Under the pieces are notes generated by a model, which did no database searches, was not told the DNA's origin, and saw only the letters and a program-made list of their open reading frames with translations. From IMG/VR virus record IMGVR_UViG_2529292720_000015: DNA of 38,578 nucleotides; one strand, given 5' to 3'. This document shows, in pieces, positions 1-38,578 of the stretch. How positions within the stretch are numbered: position 1 is the stretch's first letter; every line of letters starts with the position of its first letter. Origin of the DNA: a virus (taxonomy: Duplodnaviria; Heunggongvirae; Uroviricota; Caudoviricetes). The position numbers and the translations under genes were made by a program.

Positions 1-138
1 GAGCGCGGCCGCTTCGCCTGGCCGTCAGCCCGGGATGGCAAAGTGTTCCTCACACCGGCACAGCTGGCGATGCTCCTTGAAGGTATCGACTGGCGGCAGC
101 CTAAAAGACTGCTTACGTCCCTGACTATGTTGTAAGCC
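1..138 (+). CDS. tnpB: IS66-family accessory protein TnpB (C-terminal fragment, 5' end outside window)
   Basis: Frame 1 translates to ...[41 protein letters not shown], which matches the conserved C-terminus of IS66 Orf2/TnpB proteins from memory. It lies 45 bp upstream of the transposase gene. Confidence 0.7.
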
Positions 139-183
139 TCTTTATCCTGGTCGACGCTGAATGAGCCTGGTAATATACCCGGT

Positions 184-1722
184 ATGAGCAGCTCACTTCC
201 TGACGGTATCAATGCGCTGAAACGTCTCCTTGCCGAACAGGAGGCGCTGAACCGTGCCCTGCTGGAAAAGCTGAACGAGCGTGAACGCGAAATAGACCAT
301 CTGCAGGCACAGCTGGATAAGCTGCGCCGGATGAACTTCGGCAGCCGCTCCGAAAAAGTCTCCCGTCGTATCGCACAGATGGAAGCTGACCTGAAGGCAC
401 TTCAGAAAGAAAGTGATACCCTTACCGGTCGGGTTGACGACCCGGCCGTGCAGCGCCCGCTGCGTCAAACCCGCACCCGCAAACCGTTCCCCGAATCACT
501 CCCCCGCGATGAAAAACGGCTGCTGCCGGCAGCGTCATGCTGCCCGGAATGTGGAGGCTCACTGAGCTATCTGGGTGAGGATGCCGCCGAACAGCTGGAG
601 TTGATGCGCAGCGTCTTCCGGGTTATCCGGACTGTACGTGAAAAGCATGCCTGTACTCAGTGCGATGCCATCGTGCAGGCCCCCGCGCCTTCACGGCCCA
701 TCGAGCGGGGTATCGCAGGACCGGGGCTGCTGGCCCGCGTGCTGATCTCAAAGTATGCAGAGCACACCCCGCTGTACCGCCAGTCTGAAATGTACGGCCG
801 CCAGGGCGTGGAGCTGAGTCGTTCACTGCTGTCGGGCTGGGTGGATGCATGCTGCCGGCTACTGTCACCGCTGGAAGAAGCGCTTCAGGACTATGTGCTG
901 ACTGACGGTAAGCTCCATGCTGATGACACGCCTGTCCCGGTGCTGTTGCCAGGCAATAAGAAAACGAAGACCGGGCGGTTATGGACCTACGTTCGTGACG
1001 ACCGTAACGCCGGGTCAACGCTGGCGCCGGCGGTGTGGTTCGCTTACAGCCCGGACAGAAAAGGCATCCATCCGCAGACCCATCTTGCGGGGTTCAGTGG
1101 TGTACTGCAGGCGGATGCATACGCCGGGTTCAACGAGCTGTACCGGGATGGCCGGATAACGGAAGCCGCCTGTTGGGCTCACGCCCGCCGTAAAATCCAC
1201 GATGTGCACGTTCGCACCCCGTCAGCCCTGACGGAGGAAGCGCTGAAACGGATCGGCGAACTGTACGCCATCGAGGCAGAGATAAGGGGAATGACGGCGG
1301 AGCAGCGCCTTGCCGAACGTCAGTTGAAAACGAAACCGCTGCTGAAATCCCTGGAAAGCTGGCTGCGTGAAAAGATGAAAACCCTGTCGCGACACTCAGA
1401 ACTGGCGAAAGCGTTCGCATACGCCCTGAACCAGTGGCCGGCGCTGACGTACTATGCAGATGATGGCTGGGCTGAGGCGGACAATAACATCGCTGAAAAT
1501 GCGTTGCGGATGGTCAGTCTGGGCCGCAAAAACTACCTGTTCTTCGGTTCGGATCATGGAGGAGAGCGGGGAGCGCTGCTGTACAGCCTGATCGGGACGT
1601 GCAAACTGAACGGAGTGGAGCCAGAAAGCTACCTCCGCTATGTCCTTGACGTCATAGCCGACTGGCCGATAAACCGGGTCGGCGAACTGCTCCCCTGGCG
1701 CGTAGCACTGCCGACTGAATAA
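184..1722 (+). CDS. tnpC: IS66-family transposase (TnpC)
   Basis: 512-aa ORF with an N-terminal coiled-coil/leucine-zipper region, a Cys-rich CPECGG...CTQCD zinc-finger-like segment and a long catalytic region, typical of IS66 TnpC. Position after the TnpB-like fragment fits. Confidence 0.9.
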
Positions 1723-1738
1723 CACATCCCCGTCAATA

Positions 1739-1759
1739 CGGTTCTTGCTGCACGCTTAC
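1739..1759 (-). repeat. putative IS66 right terminal inverted repeat
   Basis: Reverse complement reads GTAAGCGTGCAGCAAGAACCG. The TAA inside GTAAGCG supplies the stop codon of the incoming minus-strand baseplate ORF. Confidence 0.5.
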
Positions 1760-2664
1760 GCATAAACAGGTACATCACTGGAACGCGAGAATTTGATTAC
1801 ATGGGGATTGCCGTATTTATCCGGAACCGTAACGGATGTTGTACCGTGAGTGGCTGTCCCCTGGCCTTTATTCCCTCTGATAGCCTGAGCAATATCCGTC
1901 ACATCACCGCCATCCACAATTACAGCAACAGAGTGTGGCGGTAACCCGTTACCGTCCTCCGAACCAGTATCGTTTTCATAGAGTTTGTGGCGGGTTACAC
2001 CGGTAACATTAGAAACAGCACCATCCAGTGCTTCAAATGGGGTTATTGATGGCAACGCAACACTTTGCGACTGGCGGATACGTAACTCAGCATCAGTTTC
2101 TGCCGGAGAGCCAACAGTAGCCGCAGCAGGATTAGTTACCGAAACCCAGCCACGGGTTGGCGTATTAATTTCAGTGATAGTTCCAGCCAGCGCCGCCACT
2201 GCACCACTGACGGAACATGTTGCGGTCGCCATCACTGTACCATCCACGCCGACCACCACTGAAGCAGGCAAACGCCATATCACATTATTACTGTCTTTCA
2301 CGCTGCCATTAATGATGGTTGTTCCGGCAGTTCCTGTAAGAAGCAAATCAACCGTAGAGTTCGTCGCGCCTTTACGTGAAATACCATTTATTTTCACGTT
2401 ACTGGTCAGTGCAGCCCCATAGCCGGTTGCCGGTGAAAAACAGTTGTAGACAGTTATCGCCATATTATTGGCATCATGAATCGCCAGCGCCATCAGAGCC
2501 ACCATCTGGCCGTCTTTGCTGTCCGGTTCGAGGTAGGCATCACTGCCATAAATCTGCTGAAAATAGCTAATCAGGGTGCTGAGTATCGTCTGATAATCAG
2601 GCGCACTGATCCCCTCCGCGGTTACCTTTGCAGATAAACCGAGAGAATCAAGGTTCAGAGCCAT
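1756..2664 (-). CDS. baseplate J-like protein (Mu gp47 / P2 gpJ-like), 3' end interrupted by the IS66 insertion
   Basis: 302-aa ORF, last in the minus-strand baseplate cluster. Its reading frame runs uninterrupted to the IS boundary and stops on the TAA within the IS terminal GTAAGCG. The family assignment is by position and composition only. Confidence 0.5.
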   Translation of the reverse strand: MALNLDSLGLSAKVTAEGISAPDYQTILSTLISYFQQIYGSDAYLEPDSKDGQMVALMALAIHDANNMAITVYNCFSPATGYGAALTSNVKINGISRKGATNSTVDLLLTGTAGTTIINGSVKDSNNVIWRLPASVVVGVDGTVMATATCSVSGAVAALAGTITEINTPTRGWVSVTNPAAATVGSPAETDAELRIRQSQSVALPSITPFEALDGAVSNVTGVTRHKLYENDTGSEDGNGLPPHSVAVIVDGGDVTDIAQAIRGNKGQGTATHGTTSVTVPDKYGNPHVIKFSRSSDVPVYA

Positions 2665-4005: not shown

Positions 4006-4560
4006 CTATGCCTTATTTATCAAAAGAAAAGTAACCGATAATATGAAAAAACCGAAAGATAACGCAATTCCTTCAAAAAGATAACGAGCATAAACTGCCT
4101 TTTCTTTATGAAGACTTTCGATCAATTCAACAGCTTTACCATACTGAAACATATGGTATCTAAGCGTTTTAATTTTATCACCGTAAAGTAAAAAATCATG
4201 CTCTTCTTTTCGCTTATGAATAGGCATTTTTGGTATATCTTTCAGTCCCCAAGTACGCCATAGGAAAAAAAAGCACATAACAATACAAACAAAGCACAGA
4301 TATGCACAAAGTATAGATAATGTTAAAAACCAATTACTCTTTAGCCCACTTTTGAAATCAACAGTCCCAAATACAGCCAGTAGAGCAGAGGTTTCTACAG
4401 CTAAAATAGCAAGAAGGTAGTTAACTTTGTCCTCAAGACGACGATATGTTGATTTTGCTTCCTCATATCTATCTTTATAATATGACGAAATAAAATCAGC
4501 GCCTATAGTCTCAATTGCCTTTTGTTCTTCTGTTGTATCTATTGGCGAACGCTTGCTCAT
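4006..4560 (-). CDS. hypothetical inner-membrane protein (about 3 TM helices), moron
   Basis: 184-aa ORF in a low-GC segment. It has a hydrophilic N-terminal region of about 45 aa and three hydrophobic helices (LLAILAVETSALLAVFG, WFLTLSILCAYLCFVCIVMCFFFLW, IALSFGFFILSVTFLLI). Its start is 7 nt after the upstream stop. Confidence 0.6.
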   Translation of the reverse strand: MSKRSPIDTTEEQKAIETIGADFISSYYKDRYEEAKSTYRRLEDKVNYLLAILAVETSALLAVFGTVDFKSGLKSNWFLTLSILCAYLCFVCIVMCFFFLWRTWGLKDIPKMPIHKRKEEHDFLLYGDKIKTLRYHMFQYGKAVELIESLHKEKAVYARYLFEGIALSFGFFILSVTFLLINKA

Positions 4561-9039: not shown

Positions 9040-9492
9040 TCAGCCCTGTTGCAGGCTCTGTGTCGTGCTGGTAAGGGGGGTAGGCAAAAAATTTCCCAGT
9101 GAATCGGCGACCCCCCGCGCCACCAGCTGCAGCATGGTTAGCAGGTCGATATCATCGAACATCAGCTGACCGCTGTTGAATACCGGCGTCCATCCGTCCA
9201 TGTGCTTACGTGATACTACGGCCAGGCAAGGATGAATAATCGCGTTGGTATCTTCTTCAGTCAGGGAAGACAGTTCCTCAGCGATACGCGGGAGCATGGT
9301 TTCAAACACCGGTTTTAACTGCTCGAATTTCACGGTGTCGATTTTGCCATCAGCAGGCAAACGGGAGCGAATGCTCCCGAAATCTGACATCATTCCTGCC
9401 AGCACCGGCAGAAGTTTGCGGGTCACTTTCAGCTGGTCAAAAACGCTGAGTTTTGCCACGCGATATTTCACGCCTTTGATTTCGAATTCCAT
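9040..9492 (-). CDS. tail assembly chaperone, putative
   Basis: 150-aa ORF immediately upstream of the tape measure gene. Assigned by synteny. Confidence 0.4.
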   Translation of the reverse strand: MEFEIKGVKYRVAKLSVFDQLKVTRKLLPVLAGMMSDFGSIRSRLPADGKIDTVKFEQLKPVFETMLPRIAEELSSLTEEDTNAIIHPCLAVVSRKHMDGWTPVFNSGQLMFDDIDLLTMLQLVARGVADSLGNFLPTPLTSTTQSLQQG

Positions 9493-16669: not shown

Positions 16670-17987
16670 TCTCGATGTCCTCGTCGGTAATGGATGCCCC
16701 GATGCCGGTTACGTCAGAATTTTCGCGCAAATCAGTCATAGCAGCTTTCAGTGTCATCAGACCATCACCCAGCGCTGTACTGATTGCGTTGGTGGTATTT
16801 AATGCCCCCGTTGAACGATCGACATCAGACATTTGCCAGAGCGGGTTAAACTCAAATGTGAAATCATCCGGGAGCGGCTTGCCAAGTTCCGAACGATGCA
16901 TGATGTCCAGTATCCGCCGCACCGGAAGACGTAAACGCCTCTCCTGCAACGAACTTACCCGGTCGTAATAGTTGGCAAGGTCTGCATCGCCGGTAGAAAA
17001 TCCCTTCGGGGACTGTCCGAACAACCGCACCAGTGGGATACCAACAGCGCCACTAATCTGTTCTGCAAACTGTGAAAGGATGTCATCCAGACCACTGAAG
17101 CTGTACTGATGGGTTTCAAACTTATCCCGCGAGTCCATGAGAGTCATGCCTTCATTGCTCTGGAACTGTCGAATCAGGTCAATATTCTTCAGCAACGCTT
17201 CATACGCAGGACCACCAAGTGCGATAAGCTCGCGTAGCTTCTCCACGCTGTAGGTACGCAAATGCGCCTTGTAGACCAGCTGCGCCGCACCGACAGTAGC
17301 GCTGTCGAACGCGGTAAGACGATCCCAGATACGCTCTACAACCGACATTCCCCATTCGTTCTCGGTCATCTTCTGCTGAAATGGCAGCGTGACGCCATCA
17401 AAGCGAATCAGGCGACTGTGATGAATGCGCCAGGCAGGAATTCCCGTTGCTGTGGTCACCACATCATAAAACTCAGGTTTACCCAGGTCCGGCCCCATAT
17501 CTTTAATGCGGCGGGTCAGTATCGGATCAATCATCCAGCGGTCGAGCGGGAGAATCCCCTTAAACTTGCCCTTACCGATGGTTTCGGGTCGCAGCGGGGT
17601 CATTGGTGCCTGCCCCTCAATCATGATGAAACCCACCGCGCCGCCGTAGAGGCGCGACCATTTCAGCACGTCATTCAGCGCATCCCAGATTTGCAACTCA
17701 TCCAGTTGTGATTCGAGAATGCCACGATCTTTTGCATCAATTTCCGAAGTGATGCGAATGCCTTTGCGGGTCATATCATCCGGGATAGCATCGACTGCTT
17801 CGCCGATGATCCAGGAAGAACGATAGGACCATTCCACCAGCATGCGGTTACGACTGGTGAAATTAGCCCGGTAGGTGGATGCTGAGTGCTGGTTAGGTGT
17901 CTGCATCCCTACGCGGGCGATAAAATTCTCATAACCATCAGCTGTGGCCTGCGCAGTTCGCCGCAGGGCTTGTTTGTTTCGTGCCAT
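16521..17987 (-). CDS. portal protein
   Basis: 488-aa ORF whose start abuts the stop of the large terminase gene (positions 17987). Confidence 0.6.
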   Translation of the reverse strand: MARNKQALRRTAQATADGYENFIARVGMQTPNQHSASTYRANFTSRNRMLVEWSYRSSWIIGEAVDAIPDDMTRKGIRITSEIDAKDRGILESQLDELQIWDALNDVLKWSRLYGGAVGFIMIEGQAPMTPLRPETIGKGKFKGILPLDRWMIDPILTRRIKDMGPDLGKPEFYDVVTTATGIPAWRIHHSRLIRFDGVTLPFQQKMTENEWGMSVVERIWDRLTAFDSATVGAAQLVYKAHLRTYSVEKLRELIALGGPAYEALLKNIDLIRQFQSNEGMTLMDSRDKFETHQYSFSGLDDILSQFAEQISGAVGIPLVRLFGQSPKGFSTGDADLANYYDRVSSLQERRLRLPVRRILDIMHRSELGKPLPDDFTFEFNPLWQMSDVDRSTGALNTTNAISTALGDGLMTLKAAMTDLRENSDVTGIGASITDEDIENAEDEAPPGIGEPDDEPQEPSGGNPLSNQPTQDSAGGRGHRKWSLRWFK

Positions 17988-21233: not shown

Positions 21234-21593
21234 TTACTCCTTCGAGCTACCAAATTTGTTACCGATTACTCGCATTGCAGCCCCACGAATAGCATCGACA
21301 CCGATCAGCCCAACGCCGCCACCAATGGCAACAGAAAGCGATTTAGGCCATCCAACATACTCAAGAGCGGATGCAAAGGTCAGCGTCAGAGCACCACAGA
21401 GCAAAATCTCAAGCGTTTTTCGTTTCCAGCCGCCGCCACCGCCAAAATAGGCAATGCGCAACCCAGCCATAACAATTGACATAACCACTGCGCCCAACGG
21501 CGTATCTCCACGCCACCAACTTTGTAAGAGTTCCAGTAAGTCAGGCCAGGAATGAGGAGCATTGTGCATTTTCATACTTCCCCCCTCCGCCAT
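21234..21593 (-). CDS. holin, putative
   Basis: 119-aa ORF immediately upstream of the endolysin, with hydrophobic helices and a charged C-terminus. A possible dual start (M...MKM) is present. Confidence 0.55.
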   Translation of the reverse strand: MAEGGSMKMHNAPHSWPDLLELLQSWWRGDTPLGAVVMSIVMAGLRIAYFGGGGGWKRKTLEILLCGALTLTFASALEYVGWPKSLSVAIGGGVGLIGVDAIRGAAMRVIGNKFGSSKE

Positions 21594-22946: not shown

Positions 22947-23136
22947 TGGAACCACCTGCCCCCACCTGGAACCACCTTTTCCTAACCTTTCCCTCAATCG
23001 ACTTATATATATATATGGGGTTTCTAGTAGAAAGGCGGTTCCAGTGGTTCCAGTAGTTCCGCCCCGCTTGCCACAAGGTCTGCAAGGTGGAACCACCTTC
23101 TCTTCTAGGTGGTTCCGCGTGGTTCCAGCGGTTCCC
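22947..23136. repeat. iteron-like repeat cluster, candidate origin of replication
   Basis: TGGAACCACC / GGTTCC(A) occurs about 9 times in both orientations within roughly 190 bp (22947-22956, 22967-22976, 23037-23060, 23087-23098, 23109-23136), next to a (TA)6-7 tract at 23004-23016. The cluster overlaps the 3' end of the primase gene. Confidence 0.45.
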
Positions 23137-25291
23137 AAACCTTGCATTTTTTCCCCCCAATTCGCCTTTGGGCACGCTTATACCCGCAATTTTGCAAAAC
23201 ATTACTAATTCGCATTTCTTCGCGTTTTCCGATGCGGTCAGGATTTAGCCCAATCGCATCACGCAAAACATCACTTGCGCGTAAAAATTCGCAATTTCGC
23301 GGAAGTTCATTAGTCATCAGGTCTGGCGTGTCGAGCCATTTCTCTACCGTTTCAAGCCAAGCATCCTTGATGGTGTACTGTTCATGGACACTCGCTGCCA
23401 GTTGTTCAGCCTCACGGAACTGGATACCCCCCAGACGCTGAAACACCTCACGAGCCTCAGCCCAAAGTAAAAGGAGATCTCTTTTTATCGCTTTCACGTC
23501 GACTTTCGACACTTCCACGGGGAGCCAGCGACGGTTACCAGTCTTGTCCGCAAGGAATTCGTCCTCATTGGTGGTACCAACGAACACCAGGCGACGAGGA
23601 AACTGGGTGGCGAACTCCCGGTATTTCGGGATCCAGTTTTCGTGAGTACGTGTCACAAACGCTTTGATTGACTCCAGCTCTTTGGTATTAAGTCCGCGCA
23701 GTTCACCAATCTCTGCCACCAGCCGACCACGCATTTTTCGAGCGAGATCATCGTCTTTTTCGGCAAAAGAGATTTCAGTAAAAAACGCAGGATCAGGGCT
23801 CAGTGCCTCCACTCCGGAAGACTTACCGCAGCCCTGCGGACCAACGAGGATCGGCACCATATCCGCTTTGATGCCTGGCTCCAGTACTCGCCCCGCCAAC
23901 GCGGTCCACATGTACATAGACACCGCACGGGTATAAGGCGTGTTGGCTGTACCGAAGTGCGTATGGTAGAAACATTCGATGCGCGGCACGCCATCCCACT
24001 CCAGCCCGTTCAGCCAGGTGATCGCTGAATCGAATGGTTGTTCATCGGCTGCAAGTAACACCACATCGCGAATAAGTTCACGACCAACAGGTTTAAATCC
24101 CCGCTTTTCCATCGTGATGCGCAGGCGCGCATAATCCGCATCGGTGAATGCTCGCCATTGTCCGGATCCTGCAGGGGCAAACATGATTTCGTCGCGGAAC
24201 TGGTCAAAGCGAATATCGATGTCCACAAAATCAGGGCGTACTACTGCTTTGGCTGCGTTGCTGATGGTTGCCTCGATACGCCCCCATTTATCACGCTCGA
24301 AAGCAGGCAGCGGTAAAGGTTCCGCCACTTCGGTGCTGGTCAGATCTTCGAAATCGTCGTTGCGGATCCCGATGGCATTAAGGAAATCTCCGTCATCACG
24401 ATGCGCACAACTGGCATGCAGGCATTTAAAATGCCCCTGCTCAAAGCCCGCGGTTCCCGCAGGAAAATAAGCTGTGCTTGTTGGATCGCCCCCGCTACTG
24501 TGGCCGTCTTCAAACGGACAGCGGATATATCGTTCACCATTTGCGCCATCCAGCAGCGTCCAGCCATTGGCATCAAGATATTCAGCTGTATCATCCGTCG
24601 CGCCGGGCGTGAATGCTGATCGGTCGCGCATCTTCGTGTTGCCCGCTTCGGTGGTTACCGACACAGGGAGTTGTTCAGCCAGGCGCTGCCACAGCGTTTC
24701 AAGCTGCTCACCAGTAATAGCCGGAGGTTCATCCGGCAAACCACCGTCCCATTCAATACGCGCGCCGCTGCTGTGCGTACCACAGGCAACGAACTGCTGC
24801 CCGTTCGCCAGCAACTCGATAATGCCCATATCCCCCGCCAGGCGATGGATACGCTTACGGAAATCACCATCAACGGCCAGCAGATACAGACACTTATTAC
24901 TGTTTGCTCGCCAGCGTCGCGGCGGCAACTCCCCCAGAAGTTGCACAAGCGTTTTGCGAATATCTGCCTGAATGTCTTCATCTTCGCTATCGCAGTCCAG
25001 CGCCAGCCAGCCATGGCCTGTACGCACGCAGATGCCATAATCCGGTTCATTCGACCAGCGGGCAAAATCATGCTCAGTAACAACATACCCGGTCCATTGA
25101 GCAATACCGGTGACCTGGCGGTCCCGGTTATAGCGACTTGGCGTCTTGCCCAGCGCTTTCAGTTTACTATCAGGGGATATGGTCGCACCGGGGTTACATA
25201 CAACTGGGAGAAGATGCTCAGTTCTCCCCAATACCAGGTCGAAATGAAACCACTCATCAGGCGTAGCTCCCCATGGTTTGCTATCGGACAT
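23105..25291 (-). CDS. DNA primase (prim-pol N-terminal domain plus VirE/D5-like P-loop NTPase)
   Basis: 728-aa ORF with an N-terminal primase-polymerase-like region, a CxxC/H zinc-binding-like segment (HFKCLHASCAHRD) and a Walker A motif (GPQGCGKSS). Confidence 0.75.
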   Translation of the reverse strand: MSDSKPWGATPDEWFHFDLVLGRTEHLLPVVCNPGATISPDSKLKALGKTPSRYNRDRQVTGIAQWTGYVVTEHDFARWSNEPDYGICVRTGHGWLALDCDSEDEDIQADIRKTLVQLLGELPPRRWRANSNKCLYLLAVDGDFRKRIHRLAGDMGIIELLANGQQFVACGTHSSGARIEWDGGLPDEPPAITGEQLETLWQRLAEQLPVSVTTEAGNTKMRDRSAFTPGATDDTAEYLDANGWTLLDGANGERYIRCPFEDGHSSGGDPTSTAYFPAGTAGFEQGHFKCLHASCAHRDDGDFLNAIGIRNDDFEDLTSTEVAEPLPLPAFERDKWGRIEATISNAAKAVVRPDFVDIDIRFDQFRDEIMFAPAGSGQWRAFTDADYARLRITMEKRGFKPVGRELIRDVVLLAADEQPFDSAITWLNGLEWDGVPRIECFYHTHFGTANTPYTRAVSMYMWTALAGRVLEPGIKADMVPILVGPQGCGKSSGVEALSPDPAFFTEISFAEKDDDLARKMRGRLVAEIGELRGLNTKELESIKAFVTRTHENWIPKYREFATQFPRRLVFVGTTNEDEFLADKTGNRRWLPVEVSKVDVKAIKRDLLLLWAEAREVFQRLGGIQFREAEQLAASVHEQYTIKDAWLETVEKWLDTPDLMTNELPRNCEFLRASDVLRDAIGLNPDRIGKREEMRISNVLQNCGYKRAQRRIGGKKCKVWEPLEPRGTT

Positions 25292-25294
25292 GGG

Positions 25295-25525
25295 TTAAGC
25301 CTTTTTATCGTTTTGTGAGCCATACAACAGCCAATTAGGGTCGCAATCCAATGCTATAGACATTTCAAGAAGATAACGTGGCCGAGCAATAACACCACTT
25401 TCAATTCTGTTTATTGCCTGCTGGCTCACTCCTGTGAGCTCAGCCAACGTAACTTGCGTCATTTTGAGTTCTTTACGTCGTTCTTTTACTCGGGTCGCTA
25501 AGGTCATTGCTTTCACCTCATACAA
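25295..25525 (-). CDS. Cro-like HTH (XRE family) transcriptional regulator
   Basis: 76-aa ORF with an HTH motif (QVTLAELTGVSQQAINRIESG). It is divergent from the CI-like gene and is the first gene of the leftward operon. Confidence 0.75.
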   Translation of the reverse strand: MYEVKAMTLATRVKERRKELKMTQVTLAELTGVSQQAINRIESGVIARPRYLLEMSIALDCDPNWLLYGSQNDKKA

Positions 25526-27935: not shown

Positions 27936-29237
27936 ATGCCAGACGTTCATGCACAACTTTCTCCATCATCAGCGCATCGATGGATGCGCTGCCCAGGAAG
28001 TCTGGCGCTGGAGGCCACACAACCGGATAAAGAAACAACTTTTGCAATCGAGGGCACTGCAGCGCACGCGCTTGCTGAAAAAGTTCTACGAAACAGGCAA
28101 AGCCACCCGGAACACTACGCCGGATGCAATGTTTCTATGTTTCTCGGCTCATACCCCCTTCGCGAAAATCCTGATGATACATCTGGCCCACAGGTGGATG
28201 ATGAAATGGTCGAAGCCGTTGGCCGGTATGTTGATACGGTCTGGACTCTTGCACAGAATAATGAACTATTGGTTGAACAACGTGTTGATTTCTCACATAT
28301 AACGGGGGTGGAAGAATCTTTCGGAACTGCCGACGGCATAATCATCGCTGGTAACGAATTACAAATCCACGACCTGAAATATGGCAAAGGCGTCCGCATT
28401 GATGCAGAACAAAATGAGCAACTACAACTGTATGCTCTGGGTGCGCTCGAACAATTCAGCATGCTGTATGACTTTGAGACTGTAAGATTATTTATTCACC
28501 AGCCAAGGCTCAACCACGTTTCAGAATGGTCGTTAACCGTGCAGGAACTTCAGTCTTTCGGTAAACGAGCACAGGAGGCCGCAACCAGTGCGATCCTTGT
28601 TCTCAATATTGCTGAATGCGAAGGCATTGAGACACTACCGCTGGAAAACTTCATACCTGGAGAAAAACAGTGCCGCTTCTGTAAAGCAAAAGCTATTTGC
28701 ACTGCCCAGAAAATGCAGCATTTACAAACAGCGGCCAGCGACTTTGAAGATCTGACAAAGCCTGTCAGCGAAATAATCACCAATGCCAGCGCACGTGTAC
28801 CTCTGTTAACCATTGAGCAGCTTGCGGAGATCTATAGCCAGGCCGACTTTATTGAGTCCTGGCTAAAGGCAGTACGGGACCGGGTTCACAATGAACTCAA
28901 TGCCGGACATCCGGTACCGGGGTTTAAACTGGTAACAGGAAAACAAGGTAACCGGGCCTGGAGTGATGAAGAGGCAGCTCGCGCACTTCTGAAGGACCAG
29001 TTCAGGTACAAAACTGAAGAAGTATTCGACTTTAAACTTATTAGCCCCACAAAAGCCGAAAAACTTATCAAAAAGGCCAGTCCGCGCCGTTGGTCAAAAG
29101 TCGAGGCACTGATAACACGAGCTGATGGTAAACCCACCATCGTTCCCGAGTCAGACCCACGCCCCGCACTCAATATCAACCCTGTAAATGATTTCGACGA
29201 CGTATCCGACGATACGCTAACCGCAGACCTCATCTGA
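27936..29237 (+). CDS. DUF2800-family PD-(D/E)XK (Cas4-like) nuclease
   Basis: The N-terminus [15 protein letters not shown] is the hallmark of the DUF2800 family as I recall it, and a C-terminal Cys cluster ([10 protein letters not shown]) is present. This is its typical position ahead of DUF2815 and the polymerase. Confidence 0.75.
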
Positions 29238-29252
29238 TTTAAGGAAATACCC

Positions 29253-29696
29253 ATGAAACTGAAGCTGAACAATGTTCGTCTGGCCTTCCCGTCTCTGTTT
29301 GAAGCTAAAACTGTAAACGGCGAAGGCGATCCACGTTTCTCCGCAGTATTTTTAATGTCACCCAAACACCCACAACTGGAAGAAATCCGTAAAGCTATGA
29401 AGCAGGTAGCGAAGGAAAAATGGGGAGAGAAGTGGGAGCCCATTTATAACCAACTGGAGAAAAAACTCAATCTGTGCCTGCATGATGGTGATGAAAAAGC
29501 AGAGTATGAAGGCTTCCCCGGCAATTTCTTCCTGAATGCTGCTAACAAAGCGCGCCCAGCTGTTCTTGATCGCGATCGTTCGCCACTTATTCAGGCTGAT
29601 GGACGTCCCTATGCAGGGTGCTATGTAAACGCCGTTATCGATATCTGGGCACAGGACAATAATTTCGGTAAACGCATTAATGCCTCACTCGGCTGA
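29253..29696 (+). CDS. DUF2815-family protein (SSB-like), apparently C-terminally truncated by an in-frame TGA
   Basis: The N-terminus MKLKLNNVRLAFPSLFEAK is typical of DUF2815. After the TGA at 29694-29696 the frame continues for 34 codons (VQFLRDGDAFAVGGVASADDFDDISEGADAEALI) to a TAA at 29799. Confidence 0.75.
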   Translation: MKLKLNNVRLAFPSLFEAKTVNGEGDPRFSAVFLMSPKHPQLEEIRKAMKQVAKEKWGEKWEPIYNQLEKKLNLCLHDGDEKAEYEGFPGNFFLNAANKARPAVLDRDRSPLIQADGRPYAGCYVNAVIDIWAQDNNFGKRINASLG

Positions 29697-29853
29697 GTCC
29701 AGTTCCTGCGAGACGGCGATGCATTCGCTGTCGGCGGAGTGGCAAGCGCTGACGATTTCGACGATATCAGCGAAGGTGCTGATGCTGAAGCACTGATTTA
29801 ACCCTACTTCATAGACGCCCGGTTAAATACCGGGCTGCTGATTAGGCGCATAA

Positions 29854-30483
29854 TCACTCAGGAATCTTAATCTTCCTCAATTCTTTATTTAGTTCACAGA
29901 TCTTCTTCTTAGACGGGAAAGTATCATACATCCAAAAACCAACAGTCTCTAAAACTATTGTCATAACCATATACACAAGATAATTTAAAAGGCCTTCATT
30001 TTGCCCTATGGAAATAATGCAGATAATAGAAAAAAGGATAAACAGCACAAAACACAGAAAGGAAAACAGACGACTAATAATAAATAAAAAACCTGAAAAA
30101 TTAACATTGATGAAAAACACTCCGTTATCTTTCTCTATATAATTCTGAAGCTTAATCACCTGATTTATATACTGTCTTTTTTCTAATCTATTGCAAATGT
30201 AAATAACATCACTTCGGTTATAAGAAGATTGCAATTTCAGCGCATCACGAATAATTTTATCATTTATTCTTTTTTCTATGGCACTCTTATCCTCCTTATC
30301 CAGATAACGTTCATACTTAACTAAATATAAAATTAACTTCTTGACATATTTAGGCTCTTTATACTTATAATTAAAAATGATCTTTCTTATCCAGACTCCC
30401 ATAACAATCAAACATGAAAAAATATATCCAGCTATTTTCTCCAGATGCTCTGTATGGTCAATCAAGTATTGGATCATATGCAT
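29854..30483 (-). CDS. hypothetical membrane protein (about 3 TM helices), AT-rich accessory gene
   Basis: 209-aa ORF, very low GC, on the strand opposite the flanking replication genes. It has hydrophobic helices at roughly residues 17-33, 134-158 and 169-190, with a Lys/Glu-rich soluble region between. Confidence 0.6.
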   Translation of the reverse strand: MHMIQYLIDHTEHLEKIAGYIFSCLIVMGVWIRKIIFNYKYKEPKYVKKLILYLVKYERYLDKEDKSAIEKRINDKIIRDALKLQSSYNRSDVIYICNRLEKRQYINQVIKLQNYIEKDNGVFFINVNFSGFLFIISRLFSFLCFVLFILFSIICIISIGQNEGLLNYLVYMVMTIVLETVGFWMYDTFPSKKKICELNKELRKIKIPE

Positions 30484-30529
30484 AATTAATCTTTTAATCA
30501 GTTAATAGAATAAAAACCAAGGTAAACAC

Positions 30530-32593
30530 ATGTCCAATATACTATGGGGCGACCTGGAAACCTATTGCGAAATCCCTATTACGAACGGTACCCATGCGTA
30601 TGCCGAAGGCGTTGAAGTGATGCTGTTCGCATGGGCTATCAACGACGGGCCAGTAAACGTATGGGATATCACTGCCGGTGGTGGTATTCCACACGGCTTA
30701 TACGAAGCAATCGCAGCCCCTGAAACCCTGCTTTATTTTCATAACTCTCACTTCGACCGCACCGTCCTGCGTTATGCAATGCCGCGACTGGCACCGCCAG
30801 TCGAACGTTGGCGCGACACGATGGTGCAGGCGCTGGCGCACGGTCTCCCGGGGTCTCTGGGGGAACTCTGCGAAGTACTAGGCGTCCCGCAAGACAAAGC
30901 GAAGGACAAAGAAGGTAAAGCGCTGATCCAGCTGTTCTGTAAGCCACGCCCGAAAAACAGCAAACTGCGCCGGGCCACCAGCAAAACCCACACGGAAGAA
31001 TGGCGGCGCTTTGTTGCTTACGCCGGACTGGATATCGAGGCAATGCGCGAAGTCTATAAACGTCTGCCGAAGTGGAATTATCAGGGGACAGAACTGGCGC
31101 TCTGGCATCGTGATCAGCAGATCAATGACCGGGGCGTCTGCATGGACGTGGAACTCGCACGCGCTGCGATCGACGCGGTAGACCAGGAACAAAAGCGCCT
31201 GGCAAAGCGTACACAGGAAATGACTGATGGCGAAGTGCAGGCAGCCACACAACGAGACGCGTTGATTAAGCACATTGTTGAATCCTACGGTGTGGAGCTA
31301 CCAGACATGCAACGCAGTACTCTGGAACGTCGTATTGCCGACCCCGATTTACCATCTGCCGTGAAAGAACTGCTGGCTATCCGCCTGCAGGCCAGTACTA
31401 CCAGCACCAGTAAATACAAGGCACTGATGAAAGGCGTAAGCCACGACGGGCGCTTACGCGGTACGCTACAGTTCTGCGGGGCGTCACGTACCGGTCGTTG
31501 GGCCGGACGGCTATTCCAGCCCCAGAACCTTCCCCGCCCTTCACTAAAACAGGAACAAATAGACGAAGGCATCGAAGCACTGAAAGCCGGATGTGCAGAC
31601 CTGCTGTTTGACAATATCATGGAACTAACCAGTTCAGCGTTACGTGGCTGCATTATCGCGCCAACAGGCAAAAAGCTGGTGGTAAGTGACTTGTCGAACA
31701 TTGAAGGCCGTATGCTGGCATGGCTGGCGGGAGAAGAATGGAAACTGAATGCATTCAGAGAGTACGACGCCGGAACGGGTCCGGACTTATATAAACTGGC
31801 GTATGCAAAAGCTTTCGATATTGCACCAGATGATGTTGATAAACACATGCGTCAGATCGGTAAAGTCATGGAACTCGGTCTGGGTTATGGAGGAGGTGTA
31901 TCGGCTTTCATCACTTTTGCTCTGGTTTACGGTCTCGATCTCGACGGGCTGGCGAACGCCGCACTGCCAAACATTCCCCGCGATGTTATCCGCGAGGCGA
32001 AAAGCTGGTACGACGAATCGGTTAAACGTAAATCGACCTACGGGCTTTCTGAACGGGTATTTATCGCCTGCGACTCACTTAAACGTCTCTGGCGCCGGGC
32101 GCATCCCGCGACCTGTGATTTCTGGTACGAACTGGAGTGCACCGTCCGCACAGCAATCGCCACACCGCAAAAAACATTGTATTGCGGTTATCTTAAAATC
32201 CGCCGCGATGGCGCGTGGCTGCGCATACAGCTACCATCCGGACGCGCTGTATGCTACCCGTCTCCGGTTATCGAACAAGGGAATATCACCTACATGGGTG
32301 TTAACTCTTATTCGCGTAAATGGCAACGACTCAAAACCTACGGCGGAAAGCTGGTGGAGAACGTCACCCAGGCGGCCGCCCGCGACGTTCTGGCCGGAAA
32401 CATGCCGCTTATCGAAGATGCCGGTTACAGCATTGTGCTGACGGTACACGACGAGGTGATCACCGAATCACCTGACACAGAAGATTTCAACGATAAAGCG
32501 CTTTCCGCGCTTCTCTCCACTAACCCCGAATGGGCGCCAGATATCCCACTGAACGCTGGCGGTTTTGAGGCGTACCACTACCGTAAGGATTAA
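30530..32593 (+). CDS. DNA polymerase, family A, with N-terminal 3'-5' exonuclease domain
   Basis: 687-aa ORF with an N-terminal DxE exonuclease motif (WGDLETY). The C-terminal region contains HDE (TVHDEVITE), consistent with the polymerase motif C region. Typical partner of DUF2800/DUF2815. Confidence 0.85.
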
Positions 32594-34168: not shown

Positions 34169-35047
34169 CTATAAGATGCCGTGTACTTTAACAACTATGT
34201 ACGTTTTGTCCAGCGAATTCAAGTTCTCACGGACGAGCAAATAAACGCAGTAAGCATCACTAAAAACACCAGGTTCTCTTCCCGTACTAACACGTTGTAA
34301 GAACTCAGTATCTTCTATAGACACGCTGATTGTGTCATCGCCATAGTTGACTCGCCAGCCTGTGTTTTTATCCTTATGAATAGTCAAAAATGTGATTAGA
34401 GCCTCTTCAATCACCCTTTCAGACAAGGACTGCACTACAGGAACGCGCCTATATCTGAACGGTTCAATATTATCTTCGTGCACCTTAATCAGCTCAACCC
34501 CCTGTTGAGTTGAAATTTTAAGCGATTCGTATCCTTCCTTTTGCAAAGGATTATGAATTAACTTCGATAAGGATTTGCGTATGCTTGGTGAGGCAAGTAA
34601 AGGCCGGAAATATGACGGGGCTATAATTTCCTCACCATCATCCATAACTATTTTACAGTCTCCTTCCGCTGTTAAAGTCAACCGTTTTATTTGCCTACCA
34701 TTGATCTGACGAATTAAGTCAATGAGAGTATTTCCTGCTGCGAGTGCAGTTGTACCTCCAAGCCCAATAATGCTTAATATATTCAAATGGTCAAGTGGAT
34801 TTTGAATAACATCAATCAAATACTCAAATGAGCCTTCCTTAAAAGGCTCAACCTCAACATTAATACACTCACTAGTGCCATTGACAACCAAATTAACTTC
34901 TTTAAGCAAGTTGTTTAGTCCATTCAATGACTCAGTTAAAACATCCAAATCTATTTTATGATCTGCTAGTGCGGGACCATCATATTTAACAACTAATTTA
35001 TCAGTAATATTTTCTTCTTGCTGGACATCTGTATAAGCTGAGGTCAT
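34169..35047 (-). CDS. hypothetical soluble protein (292 aa), accessory cassette gene 1
   Basis: AT-rich ORF with AAGGAA 5 nt upstream of the ATG, on the strand opposite the replication genes. No Walker A, HEPN, PD-(D/E)XK or other catalytic motif was recognised. Confidence 0.65.
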   Translation of the reverse strand: MTSAYTDVQQEENITDKLVVKYDGPALADHKIDLDVLTESLNGLNNLLKEVNLVVNGTSECINVEVEPFKEGSFEYLIDVIQNPLDHLNILSIIGLGGTTALAAGNTLIDLIRQINGRQIKRLTLTAEGDCKIVMDDGEEIIAPSYFRPLLASPSIRKSLSKLIHNPLQKEGYESLKISTQQGVELIKVHEDNIEPFRYRRVPVVQSLSERVIEEALITFLTIHKDKNTGWRVNYGDDTISVSIEDTEFLQRVSTGREPGVFSDAYCVYLLVRENLNSLDKTYIVVKVHGIL

Positions 35048-36512: not shown

Positions 36513-36709
36513 GCGAGAAACCCGACGATTTACTCACCCCGGATGAAGTATGCCAAAAGTTAGGTATTACACAGAAAACGCTATGTGAGTGGAATATTAA
36601 GCATCGTCATCGGGCTATCCTGGCACCAATTCGTTTCAGTGCAAAAGTAGTTCGTTATGAGCGCCGCAATGTCGACGCTTTTATTCAAAAGTGTCGCAGC
36701 CGGTATTAA
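36509..36709 (+). CDS. AlpA/Xis-like DNA-binding protein (putative excisionase or regulator)
   Basis: 66-aa ORF whose motif LLTPDEVCQKLGITQKTLCEW is typical of AlpA-family HTH proteins. It sits next to, and convergent with, the integrase gene, with an ATGA overlap to the helicase gene. Confidence 0.55.
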   Translation: MSEKPDDLLTPDEVCQKLGITQKTLCEWNIKHRHRAILAPIRFSAKVVRYERRNVDAFIQKCRSRY

Positions 36710-38109
36710 CCTCGCCGCCGTAGCAATGCCACCTGCGCAAGTATGCTCCGCTCGTGAGCCTCGAAAGCTTCGCGCTTTAACGCAATCTCTTCCTGCAAAA
36801 TCTCATCAGAAAAGTCGTAATGTTCTGCCATCGGGTCATCTGACTTGCTGGAGTGGTGAAGGCAAAGGAGGCTGATTTCCCTTCGGTCTGATCGGGAATA
36901 GCCTCTTTCCTTCATCAAGGCAATAACATTGCTCTTAAGGAATTTACGGCACATCGTATTAAATGCACCGTCTTTCCCTTTAACAGTCCCATCATGTTTT
37001 ATTCCTTTTACAGCCCCATCCGGGCTGTATGTTTTCACTAGCTTATCCAGTGATCGTTTTGAAAATGGCTGCATTGGATCACGCGGCTGCAAAAATACAT
37101 AATCCCTGTTGCACTCAGGAACTGAATCACGCCATGCTTTCTGCTCGTCGATAATCCGCCGGATCTCCGGCGTTATTGGCAGGCGGAAAGCCTTTTGTGT
37201 TTTCATAGCCCCTCGCATGCCGATAACCCCTTCAGGATAAACAATTTCGCCAGTCTCCTCGTGAACGTAGTCCCAGCGCAGGTTATGGACATTAATCGGA
37301 CGAACGCCGGTGATGATCATGAAGCGAACAGCATTCTTCTGGTGTACAGAGGTGCAGGCGGCAACATTGAGCCAGAGCCGGGCGATTGACTCAATATCGG
37401 TAAAAAGCCGTGTGGGGGTGGGTTTCTGTACGCGGGAGGAAACATAATCATCTGGCAGACTGGCAGCAACATTGCGACCGTTACAAAGAGTAGGTGCGCA
37501 GAACTTCCAGAACCGACGGAGCTCGGCAAACAACTCCAGGGCGTTATTGTTCGAGCGAGTGGCGATCCACTCGTCCAGCACTTCCACCAGCCGATTGTAT
37601 GTTACGTCGCTGAACACCTCACGCTCGCCGAACGTTGCTTTAATCCGGTCGATACGCACCCCGTAGGTTGTGAAACTGTCCGGGCTCAGCTTCTGCCGGG
37701 CGACTTTGGCTTTGAGGTCATCCCGGTACATTTCCAGCGCTGCATGTACGGACTCTGCCCGCAAGCCACCGTCAGCCATACCTAGCGCTTTTTCGCGCGC
37801 CAGCTGGATAGCGAGCTCCGGCCACTCGCCGAGCTTTTTACCCTTGAGGCCCATCTTTTTTGGAAACTCGGCGTAAAATGTAACCTTACCGGCTTTGCTG
37901 AAATCGATACGGAGATAGTTCTCTTTTTCGTATTTGGAACGGCGAGCCACGCCGGAAGCAGCGAGGATGATTTTGGCGGCAGCAACACAGATTTTCATGT
38001 GTGCGCTGGTATAGGGGGGTTTACAGGCGTCCCATTTTTCAGATGCGGCTAAAACATCGTCATTATTGGGGCTATCCGGATTATGTGTTACAGTGCGCGG
38101 CATTCTCAA
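36706..38109 (-). CDS. int: tyrosine-type integrase
   Basis: 467-aa ORF. The C-terminal domain carries recombinase boxes (ITGVRPINVHNLRWDYV with the conserved Arg, and LLCLHHSSKSDDPMAEHYDF with the His...Tyr). It lies at the prophage edge next to a chromosomal gene; the N-terminal start is uncertain. Confidence 0.7.
   Translation of the reverse strand: MRMPRTVTHNPDSPNNDDVLAASEKWDACKPPYTSAHMKICVAAAKIILAASGVARRSKYEKENYLRIDFSKAGKVTFYAEFPKKMGLKGKKLGEWPELAIQLAREKALGMADGGLRAESVHAALEMYRDDLKAKVARQKLSPDSFTTYGVRIDRIKATFGEREVFSDVTYNRLVEVLDEWIATRSNNNALELFAELRRFWKFCAPTLCNGRNVAASLPDDYVSSRVQKPTPTRLFTDIESIARLWLNVAACTSVHQKNAVRFMIITGVRPINVHNLRWDYVHEETGEIVYPEGVIGMRGAMKTQKAFRLPITPEIRRIIDEQKAWRDSVPECNRDYVFLQPRDPMQPFSKRSLDKLVKTYSPDGAVKGIKHDGTVKGKDGAFNTMCRKFLKSNVIALMKERGYSRSDRREISLLCLHHSSKSDDPMAEHYDFSDEILQEEIALKREAFEAHERSILAQVALLRRRG

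Positions 38110-38308: not shown

Positions 38309-38578
<270 letters not shown>

Follow-up and report, generated by a model that had tools for sequence, protein, structure and literature searches.

The window, by which the whole stretch of 38,578 nt analysed here is meant, corresponds to the first 38,578 nt of AQDC01000082.1, a contig of the draft assembly of E. coli 2872800 (GCA_000354455.1), a CS7 ETEC isolate. A gene for a DUF2815 / Enc34-type (T7 gp2.5-like) ssDNA-binding protein (SSB) is located on the plus strand at 29253..29801; it measures 549 nt and encodes 182 amino acid residues in all relatives, and in this contig it carries one in-frame TGA. The ORF as read in the window begins at the ATG at 29253, with AAGGAA just ahead, and after 147 codons closes at the TGA at 29694-29696 (29253..29696; 147 aa, deposited as EMV45580.1). 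The in-frame stop is due to a T at 29694, where all relatives have G (GGA, Gly148), in the context CTCGGC[G>T]GAG. Past the stop the frame stays open for 34 sense codons, VQFLRDGDAFAVGGVASADDFDDISEGADAEALI, before a TAA at 29799-29801, and the coordinates and description given for this continuation in the first-pass annotation were correct. The downstream stretch with its TAA (29697..29801) encodes the C-terminal half of the final beta-strand (GVQFLR), an invariant DGDAF, a Gly-rich linker and an acidic tail, ADDFDDISEGADAEALI. A run of 34 open codons has a chance probability of about 0.21 at this base composition and is insignificant alone, so the open run was dropped as evidence by itself and protein conservation was used in its place.

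The SSB gene lies in a phage replication module. Its neighbours are genes for a DUF2800/PD-(D/E)XK nuclease, a family-A DNA polymerase, a VRR-NUC protein and an SNF2 helicase, and a VapE primase/helicase gene lies on the other arm. A functional link between the neighbouring small ORFs and the SSB was sought with PADLOC and Pfam, and none was found.

The domain assignment was compared with and without the stop. The 147-aa ORF matched PF10991 (Enc34_ssDNA-bd, formerly DUF2815) over residues 1-146 with 114.0 bits (E 8.1e-33), the match ending at profile position 144 of 176. When Gly148 was restored, the 182-aa product scored 145.9 bits (E 1.3e-42; residues 1-175, profile positions 1-172 of 176), and the 34 downstream codons therefore add about 32 bits; both versions exceed the curated gathering threshold of 26 bits. 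Sequence matches of the repaired protein included ORF6 of the Enterobacter/Hafnia phage Enc34 (5ODJ, 5ODK, 5ODL) and the DUF2815 proteins 4JG2 and 4KLK, and all of these alignments reach past the position of the stop. For Enc34 ORF6 the match to 5ODJ had an E value of 6e-16, although the identity is only about 28%.

The AlphaFold2 model of the protein (mean pLDDT 81) showed an OB-fold in which a strand at residues 28-35 is followed by a long helix at residues 42-70. The hallmark of T7-type SSBs, an OB-fold barrel with a long capping helix directly after beta-2, is thus present in the model. The last strand comprises residues 139-153, and pLDDT is low from residue 159 onwards (tail about 159-182). 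The top Foldseek matches were Enc34 ORF6 (5ODJ), 4KLK, 4JG2 and T7 gp2.5 (1JE5), with TM values of 0.69-0.72 for the Enc34/DUF2815 structures and an E value of 7e-7 for 1JE5. The protein shares with Enc34 ORF6 an OB-fold in which a long helix follows beta-2, and an acidic C-terminal tail that is disordered. With T7 gp2.5 it shares the T7-type SSB fold, an acidic tail bearing a conserved aromatic residue (F169 here) and a place in a phage replication module beside a family-A DNA polymerase and helicases, while the identity to gp2.5 is about 11-12%. A relative at the DNA level, Bbp40 of BPP-1, is annotated as a 'Gp2.5-like ssDNA binding and annealing protein'. DUF2815-type proteins have been described as T7-type SSBs in the Enc34 study, in which the definition of the type includes the helix after beta-2 (PMC5686142). 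The underlying gene is an ordinary member of a known phage SSB family (Enc34 ORF6 / T7 gp2.5 type).

The stop had been thought to divide the DUF2815 body from its tail. Its position proved to be different: it falls within the Pfam domain, in the last strand predicted for the conserved OB-fold core (residues 139-153) and in the motif NASLGGVQFLRDGDAF, which is the most conserved of the family, NASL(G/R)GVQFLRDGDAF. The acidic unstructured tail is encoded only beyond the TGA and is absent from the 147-aa product. According to the model, this product would lose about 11 residues of the folded core in addition to the tail. The end of the Enc34 deltaC construct that was used for crystallisation aligns with query residue ~160, 13 residues beyond the end of the deposited copy at residue 147, so that part of the folded core would be lost too. 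Without its acidic tail, Enc34 ORF6 binds dsDNA as well as ssDNA, and the tail of T7 gp2.5 mediates contacts with the polymerase and the helicase (PMC5686142). By analogy with these two proteins, the intact protein would be expected to prefer ssDNA, and its tail may contact the neighbouring polymerase or helicase.

Conservation across the stop was analysed in the relatives of the gene. A search of 5.8 billion proteins returned 2701 matches, and the best 120 of them (61-99% identity) were all 179-190 aa in length, mostly 182. When 29 homologs of 61-100% identity were aligned, Q150, F151, D154, G155, A157 and F158 were invariant, and G148, G160, G161, A164 and F169 were conserved in at least 90%. 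The 29 homologs extend through the region downstream of the stop, in agreement with the earlier suggestion that full-length DUF2815 proteins carry such a tail, and the presence of an acidic SSB-like C-terminal tail was likewise borne out; the tail is conserved in the homologs, with F169 at 90% or more. Neither a common end of the homologs at the position of the stop nor a loss of conservation downstream of it was observed. The gain in PF10991 score and the invariant columns, unlike the length of the open run, exceed what chance would give.

At the DNA level, Megablast matched the gene to 156 complete genomes of E. coli and to three phages of Escherichia, and every one of these annotates a single CDS of 549 nt and 182 aa. 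A sense codon occupies the position of the stop in every relative examined, from 61 to 99.8% identity, and among them in all 28 aligned homologs. Compared with the closest genome, ETEC-2264, the window differs at one position in 549 nt, a T for G at 29694 (GGA to TGA); apart from the TGA the gene is 100% identical to this intact copy and has no other lesion. The 61-nt stretch around the stop was sought in 154 complete E. coli genomes, in which no exact copy was found and the position is G (GGA). The Escherichia phages also have GGA, and the gene is complete (182 aa) in two sibling drafts from the project that produced AQDC, namely AQDB (strain 2875000) and AQDF. Of about 15 billion catalogued proteins, the 147-aa product (EMV45580.1) is found on a single contig, in NCBI only. 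In comparison with all relatives examined, the stop is thus a single-base nonsense change, GGA>TGA, as had been proposed.

The first-pass annotation had also taken the stop to fit prophage decay. Decay of this prophage is real. An IS66-family element occupies window positions 1-1759 (transposase ORF 184-1722, plus strand) and abuts the baseplate J gene at 1759/1760, and the truncated baseplate J gene (1756-2664, minus strand) encodes 302 aa here, against 399 aa in the uninterrupted form. The junction recurs unchanged in at least five other assemblies (AQDH, AQDM, AQDI, APXB and the Logan read assembly SRR446711); ETEC-2264 and E2980 have an intact baseplate J gene and no IS66 junction. The IS66 junction is a real, clonal lesion that probably leaves the prophage of this clone tail-defective. 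The link from this decay to the stop did not stand, because siblings with the same IS66-disrupted prophage keep an intact 182-aa SSB gene and an insertion common to them does not account for the TGA. As signs of a pseudogene, a lesion common to the clonal relatives or further lesions in the SSB gene were looked for, and neither was found.

To place the TGA among the other changes of the contig, window positions 1760-38578 were compared with ETEC-2264 and E2980, two complete genomes to which they align gap-free, and three prophages at a greater distance served as further outgroups. Eight private derived substitutions were found in 36,819 nt: five were T>G/A>C, three were G>T/C>A, and none was a transition. 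In the orientation concerned, five of the eight sites read GG[T>G] (GGT>GGG), which is five of the seven sites other than the TGA; the TGA site itself, GGC[G>T], belongs to the A<>C/G<>T class with a non-canonical motif. Two of the seven fall in the tail assembly chaperone gene: a synonymous T>G at 9079 in the context GGGG[T>G], of the same anomalous class as the TGA, and an A>C at 9113 in the context [A>C]CC (GGT>GGG on the other strand), which gives V127G. Three further A>C changes, all in the context [A>C]CC, are found at 16807 (V394G in the portal protein, DUF1073), at 21462 (synonymous, in the holin gene) and at 21583, just upstream of the annotated holin start and 11 bases inside a longer 119-aa frame (21234..21593). 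The remaining two are C>A changes, at 30992 (P155T in the family-A DNA polymerase) and at 34243 (D269Y in a 292-aa PDC-S42-like protein). The V394G, P155T and D269Y proteins each occur on one contig. The V127G protein variant was also seen in two sibling drafts and in one unrelated lineage, which makes the change at 9113 either a recurrent or a real one. The 147-aa product and the V394G, P155T and D269Y proteins, the four private protein variants of AQDC01000082.1, were found nowhere else in the protein collection; all four are likewise absent from Logan and ENA, although Logan may lack the reads of 2872800. These seven further substitutions are probably, for the most part, consensus errors.

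The same pattern was observed in the sibling drafts. In AQDB, six of the eight private changes are A<>C/G<>T, including four GGT>GGG and one further GGC[G>T]; in AQDF, all four are A<>C/G<>T and all are GGT>GGG; AQDH and AQDI have one private T>G apiece in 3.9 kb. In other projects, assemblies of this prophage gave 1507 variant sites, with 70% transitions, 18% A<>C/G<>T and 16 GGT>GGG. Against these other-project assemblies, Fisher's exact test gave p = 1e-11 for the A<>C/G<>T class and p = 1e-19 for the GGT>GGG motif, and the natural spectrum would place all eight private changes of the window in the A<>C/G<>T class with a probability of 1.3e-6. The private sets of the siblings have almost nothing in common and are star-like rather than nested. 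When the siblings' private variants were checked against Logan, most were single-contig and NCBI-only; T247P in the AQDB helicase had been considered as a private variant reproduced in Logan and was rejected, as it is a natural variant in unrelated samples. AQDC and its sibling drafts show an excess of private substitutions that bears the signature of Illumina systematic miscalls and is specific to one project.

The consequences of this process for gene structure can be seen in AQDF, in which a private GGG[T>G]TAA change deletes a stop and creates an 800-aa HTH-VapE fusion present on one contig only. The fusion extends over AQDF01000050.1 5170-7572, equivalent to window ~23105-25507, with the change at window-equivalent 25295. 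This fusion is spurious and was made by the same error process.

In AQDB01000093.1 (strain 2875000), the integrase gene carries a private C>G and a private A>G three bases apart, at window-equivalent positions 37184 and 37187. This pair lies outside the GGT/G<>T pattern and may reflect a local misassembly or a real change.

According to published analyses of Illumina reads, GGT>GGG (T>G) is the strongest systematic-error motif; it is repeated at given sites and can extend to every read of one orientation, and a single laser serves for both G and T (PMC3295828). Sequence-specific errors are set off by inverted repeats and by GGC triplets, most readily where C precedes and G follows the triplet (PMC3141275), and error motifs ending in GG have been confirmed across platforms (PMC4787001). 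The private T>G changes after GG, the GGC immediately before the TGA site and the restriction of the window's private changes to G<>T / A<>C all resemble the miscalls described by Meacham et al. (2011), Nakamura et al. (2011) and Schirmer et al. (2016). The CGGCG at the TGA site is the favoured GGC context, with C before and G after. Two differences were noted: the published miscalls are errors in reads, whereas here the errors would sit in the assembly consensus, and the TGA site is G>T, unlike the canonical GGT>GGG. The phasing-lag model of Nakamura et al. was tried for the TGA site and set aside as a misfit, because the wrong base differs from the bases that precede it; the reading of this site as an error relies on the class of substitution, the GGC context and the excess specific to the project.

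The counts of G:C>T:A changes point the same way. Three were seen in the window, where about 0.1 would be predicted by ordinary divergence (a figure that takes the zero private transitions as given) and about 0.5 by the error process of the siblings; for any one change, these counts would favour error by roughly 5:1 or more. The comparison has its limits, since the three G>T/C>A changes in the window stand against one and none in two siblings, an excess that is poorly predicted by either an error or a mutation model. Within the SSB gene, 22 of the 268 possible G>T/C>A changes create stops, and one nonsense codon among a few miscalls is therefore unremarkable.

Taken on the deposited sequences, the TGA at 29694 is probably, though with some room for doubt, a consensus or base-call error in the 2872800 draft, in which a G would have been recorded as T. 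AQDC01000082.1 would then carry a wrong consensus base at 29694, and we infer that this particular G>T belongs to the systematic-miscall population. The real gene would be an intact one, encoding a 182-aa prophage SSB whose OB-fold core would bind ssDNA and whose acidic tail, by analogy with gp2.5, would contact the adjacent phage replication proteins. The first-pass annotation had ranked a sequencing error among the less likely explanations; it is now the best-supported cause, as the TGA is private and belongs to the eight-site A<>C/G<>T set. Against it stand the requirement that a majority of the reads be wrong for the consensus to be wrong, and the state of the prophage, since its disruption by IS66 makes relaxed selection possible and hence a real nonsense mutation plausible.

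Such a mutation, a very recent GGA>TGA change in 2872800 in a prophage already broken by IS66, appears unlikely, though it is the likeliest of the alternatives. The T is present in the deposited sequence, G:C>T:A is a natural class of mutation, and selection on the replication genes may be relaxed in a clone whose prophage IS66 already disrupts. The product would be a 147-aa fragment that lacks half of the last strand, the invariant QF..DG.AF and the acidic tail, and it would probably fail to fold properly or to engage the replisome of the phage. Tail loss alone alters Enc34 ORF6, which gains dsDNA binding, and the gp2.5 tail provides the polymerase and helicase contacts (PMC5686142). However, the siblings with the same insertion retain GGA, and there are no private transitions in 36.8 kb, though about 70% of natural differences are transitions. 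The three G:C>T:A changes also exceed the roughly 0.1 expected from ordinary divergence, the companion private changes are mostly of a textbook sequencing-artefact type, and the four private protein variants of the contig occur nowhere else in the protein collection. If the TGA were real, it would merely be another inactivating lesion in a prophage already disabled by IS66.

A:T>C:G together with G:C>T:A is the 8-oxoguanine spectrum of the mutT/mutM/mutY pathways. All eight private changes fall in these two classes, and all eight would be real if 2872800 or its clone were an oxidative-damage mutator with a mutT, mutY or mutM defect. This is very improbable, because the A:T>C:G changes lie specifically in the GGT/ACC context, which is a sequencer motif, because the star pattern of the siblings' private sets indicates independent errors rather than a mutator lineage, and because a combined mutT-like and mutY-like defect would be needed. 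In addition, the complete genomes of the same lineage, ETEC-2264 and E2980, which were determined by other groups, differ at only 2 sites in 42 kb.

It is scarcely probable that the TGA is real and the truncation was selected rather than neutral. In that case, for instance, a tail-less, core-clipped SSB fragment might be retained by a defective prophage for its interference with superinfecting phages that use the same replisome, or loss of the complete protein might keep host sensors of phage SSBs from being triggered (a retron sensing a phage SSB is reported), and low-level UGA leakage could still yield traces of the full-length product.

Among the stop codons of E. coli, UGA is the leakiest. 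The regulated readthrough that the first-pass annotation had considered possible, in which programmed recoding (leaky UGA readthrough or selenocysteine) would yield both a short core and a full-length tailed protein, has almost no probability and was rejected: the open downstream frame encodes a functional-looking tail, as in leaky-UGA readthrough proteins such as the Q-beta A1 protein, but the stop is unconserved, being a sense codon in all relatives with G148 conserved in at least 90%, and it splits a beta-strand inside a folded domain, so that the short product would be no sensible module. No stimulatory signal was detected; a scan of 29200-30600 against Rfam at E<=1, SECIS included, gave no match, and the RNA downstream of the TGA had a minimum free energy no lower than its shuffled versions (z = 0.21). 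As a conserved mechanism, programmed readthrough or selenocysteine insertion is effectively excluded.

Biologically, the stop itself matters little; it is an isolated case in one draft assembly, and phage SSBs of this kind are well known. A caution for the use of such assemblies follows from the consensus-error reading. Apparent pseudogenes, fusions and missense 'variants' in ETEC drafts of the 2013 era can be consensus errors; the batch concerned comprises AQDB, AQDC, AQDF, AQDH and AQDI, the kinds of error are GGT>GGG and G<>T, and in the prophage region the rate is roughly one per 4-5 kb. Counts of prophage decay or of pseudogenes taken from such drafts would be inflated.

Some features of the prophage outside the SSB gene were also recorded. 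The integrase gene (36706-38109, minus strand) adjoins yfhL (38318-38578, plus strand), and the end of the window coincides exactly with the yfhL stop. In many E. coli lineages, related prophages are found at this yfhL/shoB site. Phages that are nearly identical, vB_EcoM-606R2 and its relatives, have been deposited as phage genomes, and the family therefore includes active members.

Three further ORFs lie on the minus strand. Between the SSB and DNA polymerase genes, a very AT-rich 209-aa ORF (29854-30483; GC 0.295) with several hydrophobic segments had no Pfam or PADLOC match. This slot varies among related prophages: it holds an Nmad5-domain gene and an 89-aa gene in L014, and nothing is annotated there in DEC5B. 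The slot has the appearance of a moron or of a site for accessory cargo. A 292-aa ORF (34169-35047; GC 0.387) matched the PADLOC candidate defence family PDC-S42 (E 1e-39), and in related prophages (L014, O103:H2 12009) the slot contains a BstA_C-domain protein beside a cytosine methyltransferase, which suggests a defence-gene hotspot between the VRR-NUC and SNF2 helicase genes. Among the baseplate genes, a low-GC 184-aa ORF (4006-4560; GC 0.339) showed a weak PycTM-like PADLOC match (E 9e-4) and may be another accessory insertion.
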